A DNA stretch of 64,000 bases, from positions 1-64,000 of IMG/VR virus record IMGVR_UViG_3300027749_000063; one strand, 5' to 3'. Both the position numbers and the translations under genes were made by a program. Shown in pieces: positions 13,049-26,335 of the stretch. The first letter of the stretch is position 1. Each line of letters opens with the position of its first letter. Origin of the DNA: a virus. Under the pieces are notes generated by a model that saw only the letters and a list, made by a program, of their open reading frames with translations, made no database searches and was not told the origin of the DNA.

Positions 13049-13089
13049 TTAGTATTACAAAGTATTACAAAGTATTAAGTAATTTATTG

Positions 13090-13118
13090 AGACCCTCAGA
13101 GAAATCTGGGGGTTTTTT
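13090..13118 (+). terminator. intrinsic terminator
   Basis: AGACCCTCAGA-GAAA-TCTGGGGGTTT followed by T-run. Confidence 0.75.
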
Positions 13119-13217: not shown

Positions 13218-13340
13218 TTGAACATTTTCTCAGATATCACTGTATTGGTGAGTTTAACTGTTTTTCTCACTGTCCTACTTTCTAAGTGGGTCATAGAAGA
13301 CATTATTAAATTCTTAAAGAATAAAAAAGGTAACATATGA
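13218..13340 (+). CDS. 40-aa single-TM microprotein (TTG start; not in the ORF track)
   Basis: NIFSDITVLVSLTVFLTVLLSKWVIEDIIKFLKNKKGNI; ATGA overlap with the holin-like gene. Confidence 0.45.
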   Translation: MNIFSDITVLVSLTVFLTVLLSKWVIEDIIKFLKNKKGNI

Positions 13341-13585
13341 AACTATTAAACTTTATTGGCGGACTCTTCAAAGATGAGAAGGGTGTTGTCTCCATGAAAC
13401 GATTGTGCGGATTAGCATGCACAGTTACACTATGCGCTACATTGTACGCTAACTCTTTTACAGAGTCTCACTTTGCTCCTTCTGTTCCTTTGGTGGATGC
13501 AGTTGCTTTGTTGGCTTTTGGTTGTCTTTCTTTGACAAGCGCAGAGAAAATTATGAAAAAACCTGGAGCTAGTTCTGAGGATTAA
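13337..13585 (+). CDS. holin-like 2-TM protein
   Basis: 82 aa, SMKRL then two hydrophobic segments; directly before the lysin. Confidence 0.6.
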   Translation: MKLLNFIGGLFKDEKGVVSMKRLCGLACTVTLCATLYANSFTESHFAPSVPLVDAVALLAFGCLSLTSAEKIMKKPGASSED

Positions 13586-13627
13586 TTTACTATAAACTAT
13601 AAACTATAAATTAAAATATAAAATACT

Positions 13628-14185
13628 ATGAGTTTTACTAGAGAACAAATCGAAGCAGCTGTTAAAGCTAAAGGGCACAAATACTTCGAGAACGGAGAAT
13701 TTAATATCAATGTAATTGGTATTCGTAATAGTGCTACAGGACAAAAAGTTACCAATGCATTTGATGATTGGATGACTTTGAGCTATAAAGAAGGCGGAGA
13801 ATGGAAGTTCCATATCTGGCCTTGTACCACAGATAACGGTGGTGGAACTGCTCGTGTTAAACCAGGACAATATCCAGGATCACATGGTGTAGGTCTTCAC
13901 CAAGGTAAATACAAGTGTCTTAAGCAGAAAGCTCCTCTTACTGTATTCCGTGACTATACTAAAGACGGAGTATACCAAGAAGATAAAACTGAGACTGGAG
14001 TATTTGGTATCAACATTCACAAAGCAGGAGTTGATAGTCAGCAAGTTGGCGACTGGTCACATGGTTGCCAGGTATTTAAAAAGATTGCTGATTTTGATAA
14101 ATTTCTTGCAATCTGCGAGAAAGGTGCTAAATTACAGGGAGATTCTTTTACCTACACTTTAATTAAATCAGAAGACATTAAATAA
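13628..14185 (+). CDS. endolysin candidate, L,D-transpeptidase (YkuD)-like His/Cys enzyme
   Basis: GINIH...WSHGCQV (HxnSxGC) motif; position after the holin-like gene. Confidence 0.65.
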   Translation: MSFTREQIEAAVKAKGHKYFENGEFNINVIGIRNSATGQKVTNAFDDWMTLSYKEGGEWKFHIWPCTTDNGGGTARVKPGQYPGSHGVGLHQGKYKCLKQKAPLTVFRDYTKDGVYQEDKTETGVFGINIHKAGVDSQQVGDWSHGCQVFKKIADFDKFLAICEKGAKLQGDSFTYTLIKSEDIK

Positions 14186-14659
14186 ATGAAAGGACTTTTT
14201 GTAAGTCTTTTTCTAATTCTTTCTATTCCCTGCTTTTCTCAGATTAAAGTGATGAAGGCAGGGGATGGTTGGGATTTAAAGGTAGACTCAGCCTTAGCAT
14301 TAATTGCTCAAACAGATGTCAATGTATACATTAGATTAATAGATGTCTGCGACATAGTAGACTTTTGGATTAGTCCCTATTCTTCTAATAACATCTCTCA
14401 AGACGGAAACACTATTTACATAGCCGTAGGAGATGCAAAGATGAACTCAATAGCCAACTTAGCTTGCGTTCTAGTACATGAGAGTCTTCACTTAAACTAT
14501 TTGTTACATCCAGTAACTCAGAGTCTAGAAGAAGAAGAAGAACTTAAGTGCTACATATACGAGTTAAGTTTTATAAACAAACTACCAACCCCAGAGCCTT
14601 GGTTACAGGCAAACGCTGTAGAACAAATACACAAATTAAGTAAAATAAAAACAAAATGA
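14186..14659 (+). CDS. secreted zincin-like metallopeptidase
   Basis: Signal peptide ending ...PCFS-Q; LVHESLH (HExxH) plus downstream EEEL..Y..E. Confidence 0.7.
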   Translation: MKGLFVSLFLILSIPCFSQIKVMKAGDGWDLKVDSALALIAQTDVNVYIRLIDVCDIVDFWISPYSSNNISQDGNTIYIAVGDAKMNSIANLACVLVHESLHLNYLLHPVTQSLEEEEELKCYIYELSFINKLPTPEPWLQANAVEQIHKLSKIKTK

Positions 14660-16557
14660 ACAAATTAATTAAAATCTTCATCGGAGTGCTCACATTGTTG
14701 GTTGGCAATGCATCAGCACAATCTTCTGCTACCTCTCCAGGTACAGGTCACTGGGTAGTAATTGACTCAGGCTATCAAGTAGCTACTAACACTGTTGGTA
14801 AAACAGTTGCTCCTCTACATTTCTATAATACTTCTACTTCAGAGAAGATCACAGGTATGCAATTCCGTGTGTTCTACGATAAAACTGCTTTTACTGCAGT
14901 TGTTCCCTCTCTTAAGATTTCTACTACAGATCAATACCTTCAGTACGTAGATAGTAACACACAAGGATTCTTAACAGTTACCTTGGCTTATACAGGTACT
15001 AATTCTACTTACAACTATTCTAATGGAGCTACATTTGATTTGACTTTTACTCACGCTGCTGAGTCTACTTGGAATACTTTAGATTCTATCAAGACCTTAA
15101 AAGTTGCAGGTGTTAAGTCGTTCTCTAACAGAGCTGCTACTAACTGGGGTAATGATACTACTTTGGTAGTTTACTCATATGGTGGACGCTTCAACCAAAA
15201 GGTATTGAGATTTGCTACTAAGTTTAAAAACGTTACAGGATCTAACGCTAAGAATCTTACAGTTAGCTTAGAGAAAAGAGCTAAGGGTTCTTCTACTTGG
15301 ACTGAAATTGCTGCACAGAAAACTAACTCTAATGGGGTTACTGTATTCCGTAAGTTCTTAGATACTACTTATTGGGATGTACGTATTGTAGTTAAAGGCG
15401 ATACAATGACTCCAGGTAACGTATTCTCTACCGCTGATGCACAGAAGATCAATCAATCTATCTTAGGTCAATACACTCCTGCAGGATTTGATTACTACAC
15501 AATGGATGTAAACGGTACTACTGGTGATATTTCTATTGCTGATGTATACTCTGTATACGGACGTTTGGCAGGTAGATTCTCTGCTTGGCCTAATTCTAAG
15601 AAAGATGTAATGTTCTTTACAGTTGCTGAATATAATTCAATCAACGGATCTGCTTCTAACTTAACTGCTACTTACTCTACTGTAAATAACTTTACTTATT
15701 CTGTAGATGGAAGAGATTCTATTACTTACTATGTAGCTGTTAAAGGAGATGCAAACTCTACAGGATTTAAGATGGCTCGTTTGACTCCTATCAAAATTAC
15801 TAATCAAGCTAATGCTAAGAAATACATTATTGATGAAACTGTAACTTATGATTTCCCAGCAGAAACTATTGAGGTAAACATGCCTAAAGTATCTGTAAAT
15901 GAAGGAAACCTAGTTAACGTTCCTGTTAAAGTTTTGACTAACGGAAAGAACTTAGGTGCACTACAGTTAGATCTTAGGTATGACACAGCTTACTTAGAAT
16001 TTAAAGGTATTGAGAACACTGAAAAGATGATGAAGTGGACTACTTACATGAACCCTTCTAATGGTATTGTTTCTTGGGGAGGTGCGGACTTAACTAACGA
16101 AAACTTACTTAATGACGGAGAACAAGCATTTACAGTTCAGTTCATTGCTAAGAAGCCCCAAGATAGTTGGGCAACTGCAGCTTTATGGACAGGTGCTAAA
16201 TACGTAGGAGACAAGGACTCTAAGGATATGAACATCATTCCTGCTATGGGTATTGTAGAAGTACGTAGAGTTAACAAAGGAACTGTTTCGCTTAATGACC
16301 TTAACTCTATTATAGTATTCCCTAATCCTACAGAAGGAGATATTCAGATTCAATTTAAAATTAAAGAAGACTCTAACGTAGACATGGCTATCTCTGATGA
16401 GGTAGGAAGACGTATACAGACCATTCTAAAACAACGTATGCCTGCAGGTAAGTACAAGTATAGTGCAAACCTAGATCGTCTCTCTGATGGCGTTTATATT
16501 CTTTCTGTAACTACTGAGACAGAAGTATTACATTCTAAAATAATCGTACAAAAATGA
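14656..16557 (+). CDS. secreted cohesin-Ig-dockerin-cohesin protein with T9SS C-terminal sorting domain
   Basis: Signal ...NASA-Q; ITGMQFRVFYDKT and VNVPVKV...LGALQLDLRYDTAYLEF cohesin-like; DVNGTTGDISIADV dockerin-like; VFPNP...LSDGVYILSV...KIIVQK CTD. Confidence 0.75.
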   Translation: MNKLIKIFIGVLTLLVGNASAQSSATSPGTGHWVVIDSGYQVATNTVGKTVAPLHFYNTSTSEKITGMQFRVFYDKTAFTAVVPSLKISTTDQYLQYVDSNTQGFLTVTLAYTGTNSTYNYSNGATFDLTFTHAAESTWNTLDSIKTLKVAGVKSFSNRAATNWGNDTTLVVYSYGGRFNQKVLRFATKFKNVTGSNAKNLTVSLEKRAKGSSTWTEIAAQKTNSNGVTVFRKFLDTTYWDVRIVVKGDTMTPGNVFSTADAQKINQSILGQYTPAGFDYYTMDVNGTTGDISIADVYSVYGRLAGRFSAWPNSKKDVMFFTVAEYNSINGSASNLTATYSTVNNFTYSVDGRDSITYYVAVKGDANSTGFKMARLTPIKITNQANAKKYIIDETVTYDFPAETIEVNMPKVSVNEGNLVNVPVKVLTNGKNLGALQLDLRYDTAYLEFKGIENTEKMMKWTTYMNPSNGIVSWGGADLTNENLLNDGEQAFTVQFIAKKPQDSWATAALWTGAKYVGDKDSKDMNIIPAMGIVEVRRVNKGTVSLNDLNSIIVFPNPTEGDIQIQFKIKEDSNVDMAISDEVGRRIQTILKQRMPAGKYKYSANLDRLSDGVYILSVTTETEVLHSKIIVQK

Positions 16558-16904
16558 ACATAAAAAAAGCACTTGGTTTTACCCAAGCAGAACCAGTAGC
16601 AGTAGATTCTAAAAACAGGTTCTACTACATGCTACAACAAATGCAAGCCAATCGTTGGAGAATTACCGCTATCGTATTAGGTTTGTTTACTTTAATTATT
16701 CTCGGTATCAATGCAGCAGTATTTTTAGGAGCTTCTATTGGAGAAGACTGGAAAGAAATGCTACTTATTCTCTTAGGTGCTTTTGTAGGTAATTTAAACA
16801 AAGTAGTTGACTACTGGTTTAACTCTGAAGACAGAGACAAGATGTTAATACAGAAGGTCGATGAGGAAGACGGAGAATCACTATCAAACACAACTAATCC
16901 ATAA
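16554..16904 (+). CDS. 2-TM inner-membrane protein
   Basis: ITAIVLGLFTLIILGINAAVFLG and MLLILLGAFVG; VVDYWF motif. Confidence 0.7.
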   Translation: MNIKKALGFTQAEPVAVDSKNRFYYMLQQMQANRWRITAIVLGLFTLIILGINAAVFLGASIGEDWKEMLLILLGAFVGNLNKVVDYWFNSEDRDKMLIQKVDEEDGESLSNTTNP

Positions 16905-16908
16905 TATC

Positions 16909-17229
16909 ATGTCAGAAGAAAAAGAAGAAGGCGGTATGTCCGCTATCAAAAAAACAATCATTGGAGCAATCACTACTGCTGTAACAGCAGGAGGTGCTTG
17001 GTTTGCTACTCACTTAGGTGGTGGAGAAGATGAAAAGCCAGAAACTCCAACTGCTGTAGCAGCCCCTGCACCTGTGATTAACATCACTACGAACAACGAA
17101 CAAAAGCAACAAGCAAATACTGGTGGTGGTAACACTACTATTATCAGAGAGAAGACAATTGAAAAAGCTGCTTCTCCTGCTCCTGCTCCAGCAACTAAAC
17201 CAAAGCCAGATGAAGAAGATCCTTGGTAG
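16909..17229 (+). CDS. single-TM protein with Pro/Ala-rich disordered tail
   Basis: Likely start is MSEEKEEGG at 16909 (track ORF begins 16861); TM TIIGAITTAVTAGGAWFA. Confidence 0.65.
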   Translation: MSEEKEEGGMSAIKKTIIGAITTAVTAGGAWFATHLGGGEDEKPETPTAVAAPAPVINITTNNEQKQQANTGGGNTTIIREKTIEKAASPAPAPATKPKPDEEDPW

Positions 17230-17899
17230 TCTGTTATTGACTGTTGTATTGTTTGGTTGTGGTAGTATGAAAACAACCACAGATGATGAGCCTGTAGTAT
17301 CTAAGGACATCTCAAGTGTATCTGGTTATACAGATTCTATTAAAAGAACAGTTCAAGTAGTTAGTGTAGACATGACAAAAGTCTTAAGTTTGTATCCTGC
17401 TTTACAGGAAAAGAACGTAGGCTTAGGTTTTGCAGAATCCGTATTAGACTATTTAGATGAAACAAATCGTTTTGTATTTACTGAGGAGAAGAGTGAGATC
17501 AAGGAGAGGATGGTGACTCAGTTCAAAGCTTCAAAGAAAGGTGTATTTGATGAACCCATTGATGGAAAAGGTAAGATTAAACCTGCTCAATATTTTGTGT
17601 ATGTTACTGTGGCTGATTTTGCTGTTGATGAAGACGAGCAAGCTGAAGGTCTTAAGTCAAAGGTTGCTGTCACTACCTTTATTCGCTTACAAGTTCGTTT
17701 TGTTGACGCAAAGACAGGTCAGATATACATTGGATCTGGAGAAGGCGAATCACAAAAGATAGGCGAATCTTTCTTAAAGTCTCTTGACGATATGAAGTTT
17801 TCTCAAAGTACTGTCGGTAAAGCTACCAGAAAGTCTCTAGAAACTGCTTGTACTAATGTGATTCAAAATCTCATTAAGGCAGGTGTATTTAAAAACTAA
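17210..17899 (+). CDS. CsgG/HfaB-like outer-membrane lipoprotein
   Basis: Lipoprotein signal MKKILGSLLLTVVLFG-C (start 17210, not 17123); LDETNRFVFTE and IRLQVRFVDAKTGQI resemble the CsgG family. Confidence 0.7.
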   Translation: MKKILGSLLLTVVLFGCGSMKTTTDDEPVVSKDISSVSGYTDSIKRTVQVVSVDMTKVLSLYPALQEKNVGLGFAESVLDYLDETNRFVFTEEKSEIKERMVTQFKASKKGVFDEPIDGKGKIKPAQYFVYVTVADFAVDEDEQAEGLKSKVAVTTFIRLQVRFVDAKTGQIYIGSGEGESQKIGESFLKSLDDMKFSQSTVGKATRKSLETACTNVIQNLIKAGVFKN

Positions 17900-17966: not shown

Positions 17967-18608
17967 ATGGCAATTGTATACTCACATACTAGACTTGATA
18001 CTCAAGAATTGTTTTATATTGGTATAGGTAAAACAGAAAAACGAGCATATTCAAAACATGCTAGAAATAAGTATTGGAATCATATTGTAAATAAAACCGA
18101 ATATCAGGTAAAAATTTTGTATACAGATTTAACTTGGAAAGAAGCTTGTAAGAAAGAAATAGAATTAATCAATCAATATAAAAGAAAGATAGAAGGAGGA
18201 ATACTAGTAAACTTAACTTTAGGAGGTGACGGAAATACTTCTCCTTGTACAGAGGAAACTAAAAGAAGAATATCTGCATCTTGGAAGGGTAGAACTAGTG
18301 GTAGAAAAGGTAAAAAGTATGAAGATTGGTATTCAGAGAAAGAAATAAAAACTAAAAAAGAAGAATTAAGAGGTAGGATGGCTGGAACTAATAATCCTAT
18401 GTATGGAAAAGAAAGATCAGAACAAGTAAAAGATAAAATAAGAGAAAAATTAAAAGGAAAACCTGTATCTACAGAACAAGCTATTAGAAATAGAACAGTA
18501 TGTTTGGGTAGAAAGTATATAAGTAAAGAGGGTATTAAAAAGAAAGTTATACCTGAAGAAGTAGAAAAATATTTAAAAGAGGGATGGAAACTTGGACAAA
18601 AACACTAA
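17967..18608 (+). mobile_element. free-standing GIY-YIG-family homing endonuclease with NUMOD3-like motifs
   Basis: IVYSH...FYIGIG...R, E..LI, LVNLTLGGDG; EETKRRIS, NNPMYGKERSEQVKDKI. Confidence 0.8.
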
Positions 18609-20068
18609 GAGTTATTTTTATTTTAATTTTTTTAGTCTGTAGTCCCCTTGCAGCCCAACAATTTGTATACCAGTACACAGATCCGTGTACACAAGAGTTA
18701 AAATTTATTAACGCAAATATGTCTAGTCCTATAGTAATTGCTTACTATGGACAAGTCCAAACTTTCTCTTACACAGAATTAACAGACGGAACATTTGATA
18801 ATTGGATAAATAGTGTATATTTGAAGTATAAAAATACATCACCCTGTCAAGGAGTTGGAGTAACAACTACAACAACAACGACTACAAATGCAACCTTAAA
18901 CATTGTAAGTAATGTTATGAACTTAGGGGCTATATCAAATGTAGGAAGTGTTAACGTAGATGTAGGCTCTAGTACTTCTTCAGGAACTAACGTAGGAACC
19001 AACAATAAAACCAATAACAATGACAATCGAACTAACTCTCGGAATCGTACTAGCAGTAGCTCTAGTAATTCTAATTCTTCTGGCAGCTCGTCAGGAGAAA
19101 GTGGACAATCAAACGGTGGATCTAACTCCTCAGAAACCTCAGGAACCTCAAGTGGAAATTCCCCAGATCCCAATTCAGGAAGCAGCGGAGATGGTGCTTC
19201 AGGAAGCAGTGGCTCCAGCTCCAGTAGTGGAAGTAGTAGCGGAAGCAGTAGTGGAAGCTCCAGTGGTAGCAGTGGAAGCAGAAGTGGCTCAGGAAGTAGT
19301 GGTAAAACCGAAGAAAAAACGGAAGTACAAACCGAGAAACCCTCAGAACAAAAAGTAGAAGAAACTAAAACTGAGCAACAAAAGTCTCAGTCTAGTGGTA
19401 CTGCAAAAGCAGCCAATAAAGCTAAAGCCGAAGTTGCTAAGCCTGCGATCTTAGTAACTGGTGATTTAGTTGGTATTCAGACTAAGTCTGATGGAGCACA
19501 AGATGCAAGAGGTACTGCTTCCTTTACAAGAGTAAAAGGGGATGGTACTTCTTCTCTTGGGTTTTCAGCCGATTACATGCTTAATGCTAAGATCGGTAAT
19601 ATCTCATGCGTACGCTCGTGGATAGGGGCAAACAAAAAAGGCAACAAACACATTAGTGTAGTATCAGATGGAATGAGTCTGATGCCTAAAGCCTTCTCTA
19701 ACACAGCTCTGTTTGTTAGAGTAAATTCAGTCAAGAACTTTACAGCACTCTATGGAGCTGCTGGAACTTATGGTAAACTCTATGGAGAACAGATGATCTC
19801 TACTATTGTTATAGGAGGTTTTATGTATAAGGGAAAACTTACTAAGCATATAGACGCTACAGTTATTATGGCTGGTATCTATTCTCCTTACTCTAAATAT
19901 TATACAGAGTCTTTATTTAAAGCTAAACCTATTGTAATTCCTTTTGTAAACCTTACCTGGAAGATGACTAAGACATTTGGTATAGGAGTTACAGGAGGAG
20001 GAACCTATGTAGCTGGTCAAGACATTCTTAACTTTCAACTATTAATGGGAGCAAAGTTATTAATATGA
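18584..20068 (+). CDS. outer-membrane protein: signal peptide, N-domain, Ser/Gly-rich linker, C-terminal beta-barrel
   Basis: Signal ...SPLAA-Q; long SSG-rich tract; amphipathic beta-strands ending FQLLMGAKLLI. Confidence 0.65.
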   Translation: METWTKTLRVIFILIFLVCSPLAAQQFVYQYTDPCTQELKFINANMSSPIVIAYYGQVQTFSYTELTDGTFDNWINSVYLKYKNTSPCQGVGVTTTTTTTTNATLNIVSNVMNLGAISNVGSVNVDVGSSTSSGTNVGTNNKTNNNDNRTNSRNRTSSSSSNSNSSGSSSGESGQSNGGSNSSETSGTSSGNSPDPNSGSSGDGASGSSGSSSSSGSSSGSSSGSSSGSSGSRSGSGSSGKTEEKTEVQTEKPSEQKVEETKTEQQKSQSSGTAKAANKAKAEVAKPAILVTGDLVGIQTKSDGAQDARGTASFTRVKGDGTSSLGFSADYMLNAKIGNISCVRSWIGANKKGNKHISVVSDGMSLMPKAFSNTALFVRVNSVKNFTALYGAAGTYGKLYGEQMISTIVIGGFMYKGKLTKHIDATVIMAGIYSPYSKYYTESLFKAKPIVIPFVNLTWKMTKTFGIGVTGGGTYVAGQDILNFQLLMGAKLLI

Positions 20069-21267
20069 GATGGGTTGTTATTCTATTCTTCTTTGTGAAC
20101 TCACTGAGTGCACAATTCACCTATTCTGGATACTTGTATAGTGCAAATGGTTCAGGTGCCTCTAACGTCCCTGTAAAGCTTTATAAGAGTACAGCAGGTG
20201 CTACTACTAAGTCAGGTACTTTTGCTAAGATAACATCAGGTATTCCTTCAGATAGAGGAAGAGGAACCTCAGTACTTTTTTCTACTGCTAATACAGATGA
20301 AACATCTGTTGCTGTTACATTTCCTTCTGGATTTAGTCCTTCTTACGCAGGCACTACCTATTCATCAGGTCACGTAAATGCTAACTCATGGTTTACTTTT
20401 GGAACAGGTTCTAGTTCTGGATATAATGGAAATGCTACCAATCCTAACCAACCAACTATTCATATTGGTTCGGTAGATAATAGCTCTACAGATAATAATG
20501 TTTCTTATATTTCAACTGAAAGTTATACAGATGCAACTTACGGAGATGTGTTTAGAGTAAGATATGAAGGTAACTGTAAATATTCAGGAACTGGAGTGAA
20601 CTACACCTGGGATTTGTACTTTATTAAAAGCCAAGCTTCAAAACAAATAGTAGTTTGGAGAACATTCACCGCAGATGGTTCTAACCAAGAAATAATGGGT
20701 ATATCTACAGGTAGTGCTTGGTTAGCAAGTACACTAGTTACTTCAGGTTCTTTTTCTGGTACTAGTTGGGAAATAAATACATCCTCAAGTACTACAACAT
20801 CATCTACCTCATTAGATGCTACCTCAAATACAAACTCATCAGGATACTATTCTTTTTCAAGAACTACAGTAACCGGAGATCAATTTACAATTCAAGTAGA
20901 TGCTCCAACCAGAATACAGGCTTATACTACAACAGACATTCAAGCAGTATCCGACCTCATTCTTAATAAAACAGCTAAGACTGGTTTGACGTTTCAAATG
21001 TTTGATGTCAATGATGATTCTAAAATAACTGTGGCAGATAAATACTACGTAGCAGCAAGAAAGGCAGGAAGGTTTTCTAAATGGAGAATAGCTCCTGATG
21101 TGAGGATCTTTACAACTGCACAATACAATTCAATTGTAGCAGCAACGACAAATGTAAGAACAACTTACCCAGGAGTTACTAATCATACAACTTCTACTTT
21201 AACTAGTGGAGGAACTTTAAATCTATATCTAATAGCTCCTGGATACTCTGGAGCAGTAACTTATTAA
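20065..21267 (+). CDS. secreted dockerin-like protein with inserted passenger domain
   Basis: Signal ...SLSA-Q; FDVNDDSKITVAD; C-terminal part paralogous to the centre of 14656..16557. Confidence 0.7.
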   Translation: MRWVVILFFFVNSLSAQFTYSGYLYSANGSGASNVPVKLYKSTAGATTKSGTFAKITSGIPSDRGRGTSVLFSTANTDETSVAVTFPSGFSPSYAGTTYSSGHVNANSWFTFGTGSSSGYNGNATNPNQPTIHIGSVDNSSTDNNVSYISTESYTDATYGDVFRVRYEGNCKYSGTGVNYTWDLYFIKSQASKQIVVWRTFTADGSNQEIMGISTGSAWLASTLVTSGSFSGTSWEINTSSSTTTSSTSLDATSNTNSSGYYSFSRTTVTGDQFTIQVDAPTRIQAYTTTDIQAVSDLILNKTAKTGLTFQMFDVNDDSKITVADKYYVAARKAGRFSKWRIAPDVRIFTTAQYNSIVAATTNVRTTYPGVTNHTTSTLTSGGTLNLYLIAPGYSGAVTY

Positions 21268-21729: not shown

Positions 21730-22005
21730 GGTTCCTTCTCTCTTCGAGAAGTAGTCTATTTTGACTTTCTATTCTAACTTATATTACAGCAGTTTTTAAC
21801 CAAATAGCCTCTCAGAAGCTAAGTCTCTATTCTGTCCACTTATTGCCTACGGTCTATTAATTGTAGGTTAGAGCACTGTAAACTTTATTAGAACATTTTG
21901 ACACTATCGGAGAAACCTCTTTTCACCTCTGAGGGCTACTCATACAATCCAACTTCTAGCAGATTACTTTTTAATCCTCGTCTGCGAACACAAAGATGTG
22001 ATGTC
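21730..22005 (-). ncRNA. candidate ~275-nt structured RNA
   Basis: ORF-less; TAGCCCTCAGAGG/CTTCTGAGAGGCTA long-range stem plus hairpins; TACCTTCG promoter-like site at 22010-22017. Confidence 0.45.
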
Positions 22006-24325: not shown

Positions 24326-26335
24326 ATGCACGCTAATCTAGAAAGTCCAGAATTCTTTATTAATGTTAAGTCCTTCCCTGAGATTGGCTCAGAGGAGTAT
24401 GATGCATTTTGGGAGAACGAAGACAAAAAGATTACAGAAGGTGTAACTATTAATGGATTCTATTTCTCGCCTTTTATTTATTGGCATTTAAACTACTGGT
24501 CTATATACATAGATACAGTGGTAGGTAAGCGTCAAATTAGAAAGCTAGACAAACCTCAGCTTTGGGATACCTACTTAGCAGTAGACGAAACTATCCACAA
24601 AGCAGAAAATCACGTAGACGGAAAGAAAGGAGTTGTGATGGTAGGATCAAGACGTATCTCTAAGTCAGTTTTAACTTCTTCTTATATGGCTCACAAAGCC
24701 ATTACACAGAAAGGTTCTGACAATTTGATATCTGCGCTTAACCAACCTGACTTAAAAGTAATCACAGACTATGTAGACTTAGGTATTAGAAACCTTCCTG
24801 ACTACTTTAGATTTCCTCGTATTGAAGATGACTGGAAGAGACAGGTAACTTTAGGATTCAAAGACAAGAGAACTAACTCTCGTAATGAGTGGTCTAAGTT
24901 TCACGTACGTAACTTTGATGAAGGCAACAATACGGAAGCAGCGGCAGGTCTTACTCTATCTTCGTTTCTTTTGGAAGAAGGAGGAAAAGGAAAGATCCTT
25001 TCTTGCTTAGCGGCAACTACTCCTTGTTTTGACAGTCCTTATGGCTGGCGTTGTTCTCCTTTCGTAATTGGAACTTCTGGAGATATGACTAAGGCAGCAG
25101 ACCTAGAAGAACTCTTTAACAATCCTGAAGCCTATAACTTTCTTCCTGTAGAATCTAATGAGACAGGAAAGTCTTATGGACTATTTATTCCAGGTACACG
25201 TTCTTTGAAAGTTCCAAAGCAAGAAACTCCCCTAGGACTTTACTTAGGTAAGGAAGAAGCTTCTGAGTTAGATATAATTAAGATCTGGGTAGCAGACGAA
25301 GAGAAAGGAAAAGAACTTATCTTAAAGTCTAGAGAACAGACTAAGAAATCAAACGGATTAGAGGCTTACTTAAAAGAAGTAATGTACTATCCTTTGAATC
25401 ACGAAGAGTGTTTCTTAGAACTATCTCAGAACATATTCCCTGTAGACTTACTTCAAGAACAACTACAGAAACTAAGTGCTCAAGAAATTCAAGCAGACAA
25501 CGTAGAACTTTTCATTAACTCTGAAGGAAAGATAAGACACAAGTTTACAGACAAGAAGCCTATTATTAACTTCCCTGTTAAGTCCACAGATCCTATTGAG
25601 GGTTGTGTTCAGATTTGGGAATATCCTCTGTCAGAAGCCCCCTATGGACTTTATACAGCAGGAACGGATCCATACAAACAGTCACAGGCACACTACTCAA
25701 CTTCTTTGGGTTCTACTTATATTTATAAGAGGGTTCATAATCTAAGTGGAGAAGGATGGCAGAACATAGTTGTAGCTTGTTACACAGGTCGTCCTAAGAA
25801 GATTGAGACTTGGTATGAGATGACTAAGATGCTTCTTAAATATTACAATGCTAAGACTCTTTGTGAAAACATGGACTATGGTTTTATCCAGCATTGTGTA
25901 GATAAGAATGAATCTCCCAAAGTTCTAGAGAAGACCCCTAAGTTTCTGAATGACATCCACCCTAACTCTACAGTAAACCGTGACTACGGTATTCACATGA
26001 CCAAAGACATTAAAAACTATTTGATGTCTCTTATCATCGAGTACATAACCGAGGTAATAGAAGTAGAGAGGGATGAAGACGGAGCTATCATAAAAGAAAG
26101 ACTAGGTGTAACTAGAATACTAGATCCTCTCTTGATTAAGGAGTTAATTAAGTTTACTCCTAAGTTAAACGTTGACCGAGTTATTTCATTTGGATTAACT
26201 TTAGCTATGGCTAAAACTCTTACTACACAGGTTGTCATCTCAAACTCTAGTGACGACAATAGAATACAAGCTTACTTCAGAGAGAAGAAAGGAAACTCTT
26301 TATTCCGTACAACCTCATCCCCCTTCCGATACTAA
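24326..26335 (+). CDS. terL: terminase large subunit (crAss-like)
   Basis: Walker A-like GSRRISKS, Walker B LLEEGG, coupling GTSG, nuclease GTDPY and NVDRV. Confidence 0.9.
   Translation: MHANLESPEFFINVKSFPEIGSEEYDAFWENEDKKITEGVTINGFYFSPFIYWHLNYWSIYIDTVVGKRQIRKLDKPQLWDTYLAVDETIHKAENHVDGKKGVVMVGSRRISKSVLTSSYMAHKAITQKGSDNLISALNQPDLKVITDYVDLGIRNLPDYFRFPRIEDDWKRQVTLGFKDKRTNSRNEWSKFHVRNFDEGNNTEAAAGLTLSSFLLEEGGKGKILSCLAATTPCFDSPYGWRCSPFVIGTSGDMTKAADLEELFNNPEAYNFLPVESNETGKSYGLFIPGTRSLKVPKQETPLGLYLGKEEASELDIIKIWVADEEKGKELILKSREQTKKSNGLEAYLKEVMYYPLNHEECFLELSQNIFPVDLLQEQLQKLSAQEIQADNVELFINSEGKIRHKFTDKKPIINFPVKSTDPIEGCVQIWEYPLSEAPYGLYTAGTDPYKQSQAHYSTSLGSTYIYKRVHNLSGEGWQNIVVACYTGRPKKIETWYEMTKMLLKYYNAKTLCENMDYGFIQHCVDKNESPKVLEKTPKFLNDIHPNSTVNRDYGIHMTKDIKNYLMSLIIEYITEVIEVERDEDGAIIKERLGVTRILDPLLIKELIKFTPKLNVDRVISFGLTLAMAKTLTTQVVISNSSDDNRIQAYFREKKGNSLFRTTSSPFRY

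Follow-up and report, generated by a model that had tools for sequence, protein, structure and literature searches.

A 64,000-nucleotide stretch of viral DNA (positions 1 to 64,000 of IMG/VR record IMGVR_UViG_3300027749_000063; hereafter the window) carries on its plus strand, at 14656-16557, a gene for a 633-residue protein, P0001, in which two cohesins and a dockerin-fold module are joined to a type IX secretion system (T9SS) sorting tag. On balance, we consider it probable that this protein is a phage-encoded, non-cellulosomal scaffoldin that is exported by the host T9SS and hangs an exchangeable glycan-binding phage head on the surface of the infected cell. Cohesin-dockerin scaffolds and T9SS cargo are both textbook subjects, the former being bacterial and archaeal devices used mainly for polysaccharide breakdown and the latter making up the surface coat of the host itself. 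In this case, a compact scaffoldin with a tag for the host T9SS is encoded by a virus, together with a partner protein whose putative sugar-binding head is swapped between lineages, and the same set is found on at least three unrelated phage backbones and on hundreds of freshwater viral contigs.

A first-pass annotation of the window had noted a signal peptide, two cohesins, a dockerin-like segment and a T9SS C-terminal sorting domain (CTD) in this open reading frame (ORF), and all of them are present there at exactly those coordinates. The modules were placed with the help of family searches and an AlphaFold2 model of the full-length protein, built on an alignment of 26 homologs (mean predicted local distance difference test score, pLDDT, 82; predicted template modelling score, pTM, 0.65), and are as follows.

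14656-16557, plus strand: ORF of the phage scaffoldin-like T9SS cargo P0001, 633 aa.
14656-14718, plus strand: Sec (SPI-type) signal peptide, aa 1-21, by sequence inspection, with cleavage predicted after ASA.
14743-15189, plus strand: cohesin 1 (Coh1), aa ~30-178, by PF00963 and fold alignment.
15196-15396, plus strand: beta-sandwich 'X' module, aa 181-247, with weak PF00576 and PDB transthyretin-like matches and strands at pLDDT ~90.
15397-15609, plus strand: dockerin-fold module (DocA), aa 248-318, by fold searches and conserved calcium-loop residues.
15610-15795, plus strand: beta-rich segment after the dockerin, aa 319-380, ending in a near-invariant GDAN.TG motif.
15796-15849, plus strand: flexible linker of 18 residues, aa 381-398, with pLDDT <50 at aa 381-391.
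15850-16275, plus strand: cohesin 2 (Coh2), aa 399-540, type-I-like, by PF00963, fold and profile.
16309-16554, plus strand: T9SS type-A CTD, aa 552-633, by PF18962, TIGR04183 and the PorU CTD fold.

This architecture is not a product of chance, since the whole layout is kept in homologs down to 22% identity and the gene is under purifying selection (whole-gene dN/dS ~0.14, an approximate value with dS near saturation). The 633 residues include no cysteine, and a search of PHROGs returned no family for the protein. The ORF overlaps both of its neighbours by a 4-nt ATGA, at its start and at its stop, which suggests translational coupling.

The predicted signal peptide (MNKLIKIFIGVLTLLVGNASA, followed by QS) has, by eye, a basic, K-rich n-region, a hydrophobic core and an A-x-A site (ASA then Q); it covers a low-pLDDT helix at aa 2-14, and its 'AQ' end is kept across homologs. 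Cohesins are recognised in two stretches when the whole protein is compared with PF00963 (50.7 bits). Scanned alone, cohesin 1 (aa 45-157) scores a borderline 25.5 bits against a cut-off of 24.1, and it is further indicated, indirectly, by the CipA CohI9-X-DocII chain (4fl4_I) and a cohesin dyad (3l8q_B), both of which align from residue 28 and therefore point to a cohesin as the N-terminal module. Cohesin 2 (aa 405-526) reaches 40.7 bits on its own and superposes on CaCohA2 (6kgc_A), a type-I cohesin that was crystallised with its dockerin, with a Z score of 15.7, a root-mean-square deviation (rmsd) of 2.1 Å over 136 of 144 residues and 22% identity; its template modelling (TM) scores against solved cohesins are 0.73-0.79, and the 26-homolog profile also finds the cohesin 2vn5_A among PDB sequences at E 1.9e-6. 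The region between cohesin 1 and the dockerin, taken earlier for an Ig-like domain, is a beta-sandwich that belongs to no assigned family, its only matches being weak ones of the transthyretin/prealbumin type.

At the extreme C-terminus, a full-length type-A CTD is matched by TIGR04183 with 40.5 bits (cut-off 23) over profile positions 1-72 of 72, and by PF18962, Por_Secre_tail (41.9-47.9 bits, cut-off 27; positions 1-75 of 75 at aa 554-632 of 633). The FPNP, GVYIL and KII motifs named in the first-pass annotation are all present, the 26-homolog profile reaches solved T9SS CTDs (8glk_D at E 1.9e-5, 8glj_D at E 1.6e-4), and the modelled domain superposes on the PorU CTD 6za2_B (Z 10.6, rmsd 2.4 Å, 84 residues). 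Searches with the hidden Markov models (HMMs) that had been suggested as a check thus put the cohesins and the CTD over their cut-offs, while the Pfam dockerin model stayed silent on this protein. A virion structural protein is ruled out by the signal peptide together with the CTD, and a cellulosome is ruled out as well, given that Pfam finds no carbohydrate-binding module (CBM) or enzyme family in the scaffold and that the partner heads are lectin-type or unannotated; the protein is scaffoldin-like in its presumed working and not a cellulosome.

The module that needs most care is DocA. When its model was compared with 48,161 PDB representatives, the 12 best chains were all dockerins, aligned at 1.4-2.5 Å rmsd over 53-61 residues and led by 4fl4_A (Z 6.0), 4dh2_D (5.9) and 2ccl_B (5.8; rmsd 1.4 Å, 53 residues). 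Each match spans most of the dockerin chain, and modest absolute Z scores are to be expected at ~60 residues; with Foldseek, ranks 1-11 were likewise dockerins, at a TM score of ~0.70. The predicted helices (259-269, 279-283 and 294-304) have pLDDT 83-93, and aa 240-400 folded alone reach 77. Homologs down to 22% identity share the consensus GDTM..GN..STADAQK.N..VLG..TP.GFD.Y..DVNG...ITIAD.Y.VFGR.AGRF, in which D296 never varies and D284, N286 and R303 hardly do; D284, N286 and D296 correspond to positions 1, 3 and 12 of an F-hand calcium loop. This second loop is near-canonical (DVNGTTGDISIAD, aa 284-296, window 15505-15543), while the first is degenerate (GDTMTPGNVFSTAD, aa 248-261). Weak sequence signals agree with the fold: of 31 relatives, 12 have sub-threshold Dockerin_1 matches (E<=1; lowest E 0.0019), and the family profile touches the dockerin chains 4uyp_B (E 0.2) and 2ccl_B (E 0.96) at the DocA position. 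With nothing but dockerins at the top of the fold searches, and with the conservation and these weak signals, aa 248-318 is, as modelled, a dockerin-fold module.

The trailing KGDAN, which had been counted as part of the dockerin-like segment, is real and lies in the best-conserved motif of the family, GDAN.TG (aa 364-370, window 15745-15765; G364 and D365 in at least 90% of sequences), but it falls outside the dockerin fold, since it lies ~50 residues beyond it. The motif, as GD(A/V)N.TG, sits exactly at the point where the gene is split in immuto (described below) and in other lineages, is kept in fused and split forms alike, and resembles the start of a third F-hand loop.

The order of the modules can be compared with that of the cellulosomal scaffoldin CipA of C. 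thermocellum, whose CohI9-X-DocII portion binds anchoring scaffoldins such as SdbA (PDB 4fl4, 3kcp). Residues 28-307 of the phage protein align in order to CohI9-X-DocII (4fl4_I; Z 14.2, 238 residues), so that the N-terminal half has the layout of a primary scaffoldin, with cohesin 1, an X beta-sandwich and a dockerin on one chain as in the Coh-X-Doc of CipA. In the C-terminal half, the resemblance is to an anchoring scaffoldin, with cohesin 2 followed by a surface-targeting signal in which the T9SS tag takes the place of S-layer homology (SLH) repeats, and dockerin-tagged passengers are encoded nearby. The mature chain thus fuses two scaffoldin layouts that are kept on separate proteins in cellulosomes. 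Unlike the CipA system, this one is phage-encoded, the phage being one of a Gram-negative phylum, its anchor is a T9SS CTD, its cargo heads are Lectin_C, PA14 and GEVED domains instead of enzymes, it has no CBM, and its dockerin is too divergent for Pfam, with a degenerate first calcium loop. The relative orientation of the domains also differs from that in 4fl4_I (rmsd 10.6 Å).

Among deposited phage genomes, relatives are found in three alone, the 'immuto' myoviruses of Flavobacterium sp. LMO8 (28% identity), and there the primary and anchoring parts, fused in the window phage, are separate. In Flavobacterium phage vB_FspM_immuto (NC_055915), gp014 consists of a signal peptide, Coh1, X and the dockerin and ends in GDVNGTGLN, whereas gp015 consists of Coh2 and the CTD with a signal peptide of its own (MKSWIVILLLSINSLYSQ). 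Directly upstream of gp014, gp013 encodes a C-type lectin with this same dockerin module at its end. These modules, labelled in GenBank only as 'cohesin domain-containing', 'hypothetical' and 'lectin C-type', are the same as those in the window and belong to a cultured phage-host pair; unlike in the window, the backbone is an unrelated 160-kb myovirus, the scaffold occupies two genes, and the partner gene is upstream and adjacent. In other lineages, stand-alone proteins of ~245 aa with a signal peptide, a cohesin and a CTD are found, as are N-terminal halves ending at GDANGTG. By a Rosetta-stone argument, a dockerin half without a CTD next to a cohesin half that bears one suggests that the two halves bind each other, and the division of immuto into Coh1-X-Doc and Coh2-CTD suggests a hierarchical or cis-closed assembly and not a mesh. 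A complex prediction of Coh2 (aa 399-537) with X-Doc (aa 181-380), made for this one pair and without controls, scored 0.14 against a mark of 0.32, a result that counts neither for nor against binding.

A second exported protein with a dockerin, for which the first-pass annotation had proposed that cohesin sites are left free, is the part of that interpretation that is best supported. When the 99-kb genome was scanned with purpose-built module HMMs, the dockerin plus beta module was found in one other ORF alone (E 5.8e-24), and this ORF matches the scaffoldin module at 35% identity over 127 aa (E 5e-14).

20065-21267, plus strand: presumed partner P0122, 400 aa, with a signal peptide, a head without a Pfam family and a C-terminal dockerin plus beta module (DocB), by module HMM.
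21004-21039, plus strand: calcium loop of DocB, within P0122.

The full scaffold architecture is present in 78 of 80 related viral loci, and each of the 55 loci that extend 5 kb or more downstream has exactly one DocB-type partner (55/55), 2.3-4.9 kb downstream. These loci were found with a narrow alignment (66-96% identity, one lineage), and the count therefore represents conserved synteny and not 55 independent events. The same cassette also occurs on independent backbones, namely the immuto myovirus and a 254-kb phage-like contig (44% identity). Across lineages, the partner head is a C-type lectin (Lectin_C), GEVED or PA14 domain, or, as in the window, one with no assigned family; no enzyme family was seen among the listed partners. 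One related locus (L003) has a scaffold 96% identical to that of the window, yet its partner (L003:16901-17881) has a C-type lectin head in place of the family-less head of P0122, which indicates recent swapping of heads on a constant dockerin stalk.

Two copies of the locus lie in contigs assigned to cells. One is a 90%-identical copy on a 16.5-kb contig (RFPL01000028.1) binned in a 'Sphingomonadaceae' metagenome-assembled genome (MAG), which is probably mis-binned phage DNA. The other is the whole cassette on the 254-kb contig (CAIWBA010000291.1, locus L084) in a Bacteroidetes MAG, beside topoisomerase, tail-collar and peptidoglycan-binding lysin genes, which is probably a jumbo phage. These two loci, both phage-like, were all that a genome scan with one peptide pattern found, and that scan says little on cellular homologs in general.

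Export of the scaffoldin by the host T9SS is well supported: we infer it from the predicted signal peptide, the full-length type-A CTD that scores over the cut-offs, and the modelled CTD fold. On the host side, relatives of the phage by its terminase infect Bacteroidota, and a cultured Flavobacterium phage, immuto, carries the same proteins. In the mechanism that we favour, the signal peptide would carry the scaffoldin into the periplasm, and the type-A CTD would pass it to the host T9SS. Type-A T9SS cargo loses its CTD before it is attached to the surface or released, and the scaffoldin would likewise have its CTD cut off and be attached to the cell surface or set free. One cohesin, weakly indicated to be Coh1, would capture the dockerin of the second exported protein, whose head would act as an exchangeable glycan-binding or adhesion domain, while the scaffold's own dockerin may engage the other cohesin, in cis or in trans. 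In phages with the split gene, the dockerin-cohesin link would tether the half that lacks a CTD to the half that bears one. The net effect would be an infected Bacteroidota cell that shows phage-chosen lectin heads on its envelope. A likely purpose would be to mask surface glycan receptors, which would block superinfection or spare progeny from being lost to debris, or else to make infected cells and their debris sticky.

A more specific version of this mechanism would have cohesin and dockerin pair in the periplasm, such that the lectin carrier without a CTD (and the split Coh1-X-Doc half) hitch-hikes through the T9SS on the cohesin chain that bears one. We put this forward tentatively and think it rather unlikely; to our knowledge, no hitch-hiking through the T9SS has been described. 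If true, it would let the phage re-dress the surface of the infected cell with exchangeable glycan-binding heads.

The modules of the scaffoldin differ in their rates of evolution, all of them lying at dN/dS values between 0.07 and 0.25, with Coh1 slowest (0.07), DocA at 0.095 and the CTD fastest (0.25). Mean pairwise protein distances follow a similar course, from 0.15 for Coh1 and DocA to 0.24 for Coh2 and 0.46 for the CTD; in the partner, they are 0.41 for the dockerin and 0.55 for the head. In partial Mantel tests, the partner dockerin covaries both with Coh1 (r 0.20, p 0.0035) and, at r 0.31, with DocA, and shows no covariation with Coh2 (r 0.04); DocA covaries with Coh1 (r 0.20, p 0.0015). 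Given that the sequences are related and possibly share recombination blocks, the tests are weak, but they give a hint that Coh1 may be the socket for the lectin carrier.

The window is part of a viral contig of 99 kb in IMG/VR, with an estimated completeness of 84%, and it is DNA of a crAss-like phage from fresh water: downstream of the scaffoldin gene lie those for a large terminase, a portal and the major head protein, and upstream of it one for a 1429-aa fibre-like protein. Among the relatives of the terminase are crAss-like phages of Cellulophaga, Flavobacterium and Bacteroides (~30% identity). A host gene on a mis-assembled contig was considered and is ruled out, as the contig is crAss-like, with the gene placed between the tail-fibre-like gene and the terminase gene, and as the gene is found again on 345 viral contigs. 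The scaffoldin gene belongs to an 8.6-kb unit with a terminator-like hairpin on either side.

13089-13116, plus strand: strong terminator-like hairpin, marking the probable start of the transcription unit that holds the scaffoldin gene.
21735-21751, plus strand: terminator-like hairpin 3' of the last cassette ORF.

Other members of this unit are a small membrane ORF, an endolysin-like ORF, a protein that has a signal peptide and an HExxH motif, a pair of small membrane proteins, a lipoprotein, an inserted homing endonuclease and a 494-aa serine/glycine-rich exported protein, and the gene order of the cassette is the same in the 254-kb phage-like contig.

Several results weigh against the mechanism that we favour. 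Dockerin_1 (PF00404) does not match the scaffoldin with the threshold relaxed to E<=10, and when the dockerin segment was compared as a single sequence with solved structures, no dockerin came up, only chance aspartoacylase matches (E 1.1). The second calcium loop has 13 residues in this lineage, through a one-residue insertion, as against 12 in most relatives, and in the first F-hand the loop has lost its usual ligands at two positions, 3 and 5, with the helix and the flanking D249 and D261 kept. No covariation was found between DocA and Coh2 (partial r -0.02), which does not fit a CipA-style pairing. P0122 has no CTD, and its crossing of the outer membrane is not accounted for. The best isolate match by terminase (24326-26335) is the cyanobacterial Leptolyngbya phage Lbo-JY46, at 39% identity and ahead of the crAss-like phages of Bacteroidota; this match is at odds with the Bacteroidota host that the T9SS tag implies. 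The scaffoldin gene is also apparently co-transcribed with lysis-type genes, and if it is therefore expressed late, little time would be left for surface display.

Among the other ways in which the same modules could be read, the first-pass annotation had favoured a self-polymerising mesh, in which the dockerin plugs into a cohesin of the next molecule to give chains or branched networks on the cell surface, with spare cohesins left to hold the lectin protein. We regard such polymerisation as possible but unlikely: nothing in the analysis supports it, and an assembly that is hierarchical or closed is no less likely. The presence of two cohesins and a dockerin on one chain is compatible with a mesh, as are the covariation of DocA with Coh1, the standing of these two as the most conserved modules, and the 18-residue linker, which is flexible enough to permit binding in trans. 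However, DocA and Coh1 adjoin on one chain, so that shared history or a contact in cis would explain their covariation equally well. In known Coh-X-Doc scaffoldins, the dockerin does not bind the cohesins of its own type of chain; CipA has cohesins and a dockerin on one chain and does not self-polymerise because the specificity of its dockerin differs from that of these cohesins. A Coh1-DocA polymer would also, in the split form of immuto, be left untethered from the half that bears the CTD. Lastly, an independent model from BFVD of a 45%-identical homolog superposes on the scaffoldin model over its full length (TM 0.77), and this shared shape predicts a compact chain and not a string of beads, and so speaks mildly for contacts in cis.

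It is also conceivable, though distinctly unlikely in our estimate, that the cohesins bind host molecules and that the dockerin-fold module is a calcium-stabilised structural insert, the whole being a secreted adhesin or a blocker of host surface proteins with Coh2 and the CTD facing the host. Such a role would agree with the faster evolution of Coh2 and the CTD relative to the N-terminal half, with the lack of a dockerin that covaries with Coh2, and with the wide occurrence of non-cellulosomal cohesins without a known ligand, including those in multi-cohesin T9SS proteins. It leaves unexplained, however, why the same dockerin module stands at the C-terminus of an ever-present second phage protein and why residues of the calcium loop are invariant or nearly so. 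From the gene neighbourhood, another role could be imagined, inside the envelope, in an apparatus for lysis or outer-membrane disruption that would include the membrane proteins encoded nearby, the CsgG-like lipoprotein and the exported protein of 494 aa. Holin-like and endolysin-like ORFs share the terminator-bracketed unit with the scaffoldin gene, ATGA overlaps couple this gene to its neighbours, the same neighbours recur in the 254-kb phage-like contig, and the lipoprotein is like CsgG/LpoB by language-model features, which are a lead only. We nonetheless think this role very unlikely, as a T9SS CTD directs cargo out of the periplasm, the lectin, PA14 and GEVED heads suggest binding of external glycans, and we know of no lysis system with cohesin-dockerin modules. 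There is, finally, a slight chance that the protein is a decoy or plug for the T9SS, where the CTD would bring a bulky cohesin-dockerin-lectin complex that jams the translocon, stops secretion of gliding adhesins and excludes phages that need them. T9SS and gliding mutants of Flavobacterium resist many phages, and partners without a CTD would have to travel bound to the chain that has one; the CTD, however, is the least constrained module, which would be odd for a plug that binds tightly.

Returning to the exported scaffold that we favour, its closest structural parallels are the type-I cohesin-dockerin pairs of C. acetobutylicum (CaCohA2-CaDoc0917, 6kgc), C. thermocellum (1ohz, 2ccl) and A. 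cellulolyticus (4uyp), which Coh2 and DocA resemble at the Z scores given above (15.7 and 5.8-6.0). The dockerin identity to them is 17-28%, DocA lies, unlike their dockerins, between beta-sandwich segments and not at a chain terminus, and binding is predicted only. Among the remote matches in genomes and metagenomes are proteins with multiple cohesins, Ig repeats and a CTD, and mini-proteins with a signal peptide, one cohesin and a CTD (P0159, P0164, P0184, P0188, P0198, P0203, P0228 and P0251). This is like the scaffoldin in that a cohesin is combined with a type-A CTD, and P0203 also has a dockerin that Pfam detects; unlike the scaffoldin, they carry either three to six tandem cohesins or a single one, without a Coh-X-Doc unit. 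Their occurrence indicates that the cohesin architecture is used with the T9SS elsewhere, and no paper on these proteins was found in the literature.

One published precedent for phage T9SS cargo has been described in 'Cryophage', whose genes with type-A T9SS sorting domains led the authors to infer that the T9SS of the host is hijacked (Bellas et al., 2020; PMC7468147). The phage-encoded type-A cargo in that case also has variable, surface-active content, a PA14 protein included, but the cargoes are single enzymes or the PA14 protein, each with its own CTD, and cohesins are mentioned zero times in the paper (PMC7468147). In the full-text literature, no paper was found that describes a phage cohesin-dockerin system, or a cohesin-dockerin system linked to the T9SS.

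If binding and export hold true, phages of Bacteroidota would remodel the surface of the infected cell with lectins of their own. This would bear on superinfection exclusion, on the loss of progeny to debris, on the aggregation of cells on lake and sea particles and on the handling of complexes by the T9SS, and it would offer protein engineering a new cohesin-dockerin pair of very small size. The cultured pair of phage immuto and Flavobacterium sp. LMO8 makes the model directly testable.

The transcription of the unit was also considered. A scan for sigma-70 promoters gave 39 as against 36 in shuffled sequences, which is no excess, and promoters of the Bacteroidota type lie outside the scope of that scan. 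Fragments 85-99% identical to the scaffoldin gene and its neighbours are present in freshwater metatranscriptome contigs from three studies, at shares of 0.05-0.10 and with possible DNA carry-over; these contigs are taken neither to prove transcription nor to be firm evidence of habitat.

The neighbouring genes of the unit, all on the plus strand, call for some comment. At 13337-14185, an 82-aa small membrane ORF is followed by a 185-aa protein (phrog_3000) with a weak endolysin match and an SHGC motif that recalls YkuD-type enzymes; together, these two are probably a lysis pair at the head of the terminator-bracketed unit. Next, at 14186-14659, a 157-aa ORF has a signal peptide (MKGLFVSLFLILSIPCFSQ) and an HExxH motif (HESLH), and its stop overlaps the scaffoldin start by ATGA; it has no Pfam or PHROG family, and possibly represents a small, metalloprotease-like protein that is secreted and has its translation coupled to that of the scaffoldin. 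Downstream, at 17210-17899, lies a lipoprotein (MKKILGSLLLTVVLFGCGS...) whose start overlaps the preceding ORF for a 122-aa membrane protein (16861-17229). It has no Pfam match and no match among PDB sequences, and its language-model features are like those of CsgG/HfaB/LpoB family proteins (score 0.95-0.96), which is a lead only. A homing endonuclease at 17967-18608 (phrog_314, E 3e-20) interrupts the cassette of exported proteins, and the next ORF begins, at 18584, within its 3' end. This ORF (18584-20068) encodes the 494-aa exported protein, which has no family match and has a long, low-complexity middle part rich in Ser, Gly, Thr and Asn and a beta-rich C-terminal part. Its counterparts at the same position of the cassette are a 553-aa protein in L084 and probably gp018 of immuto (474 aa).

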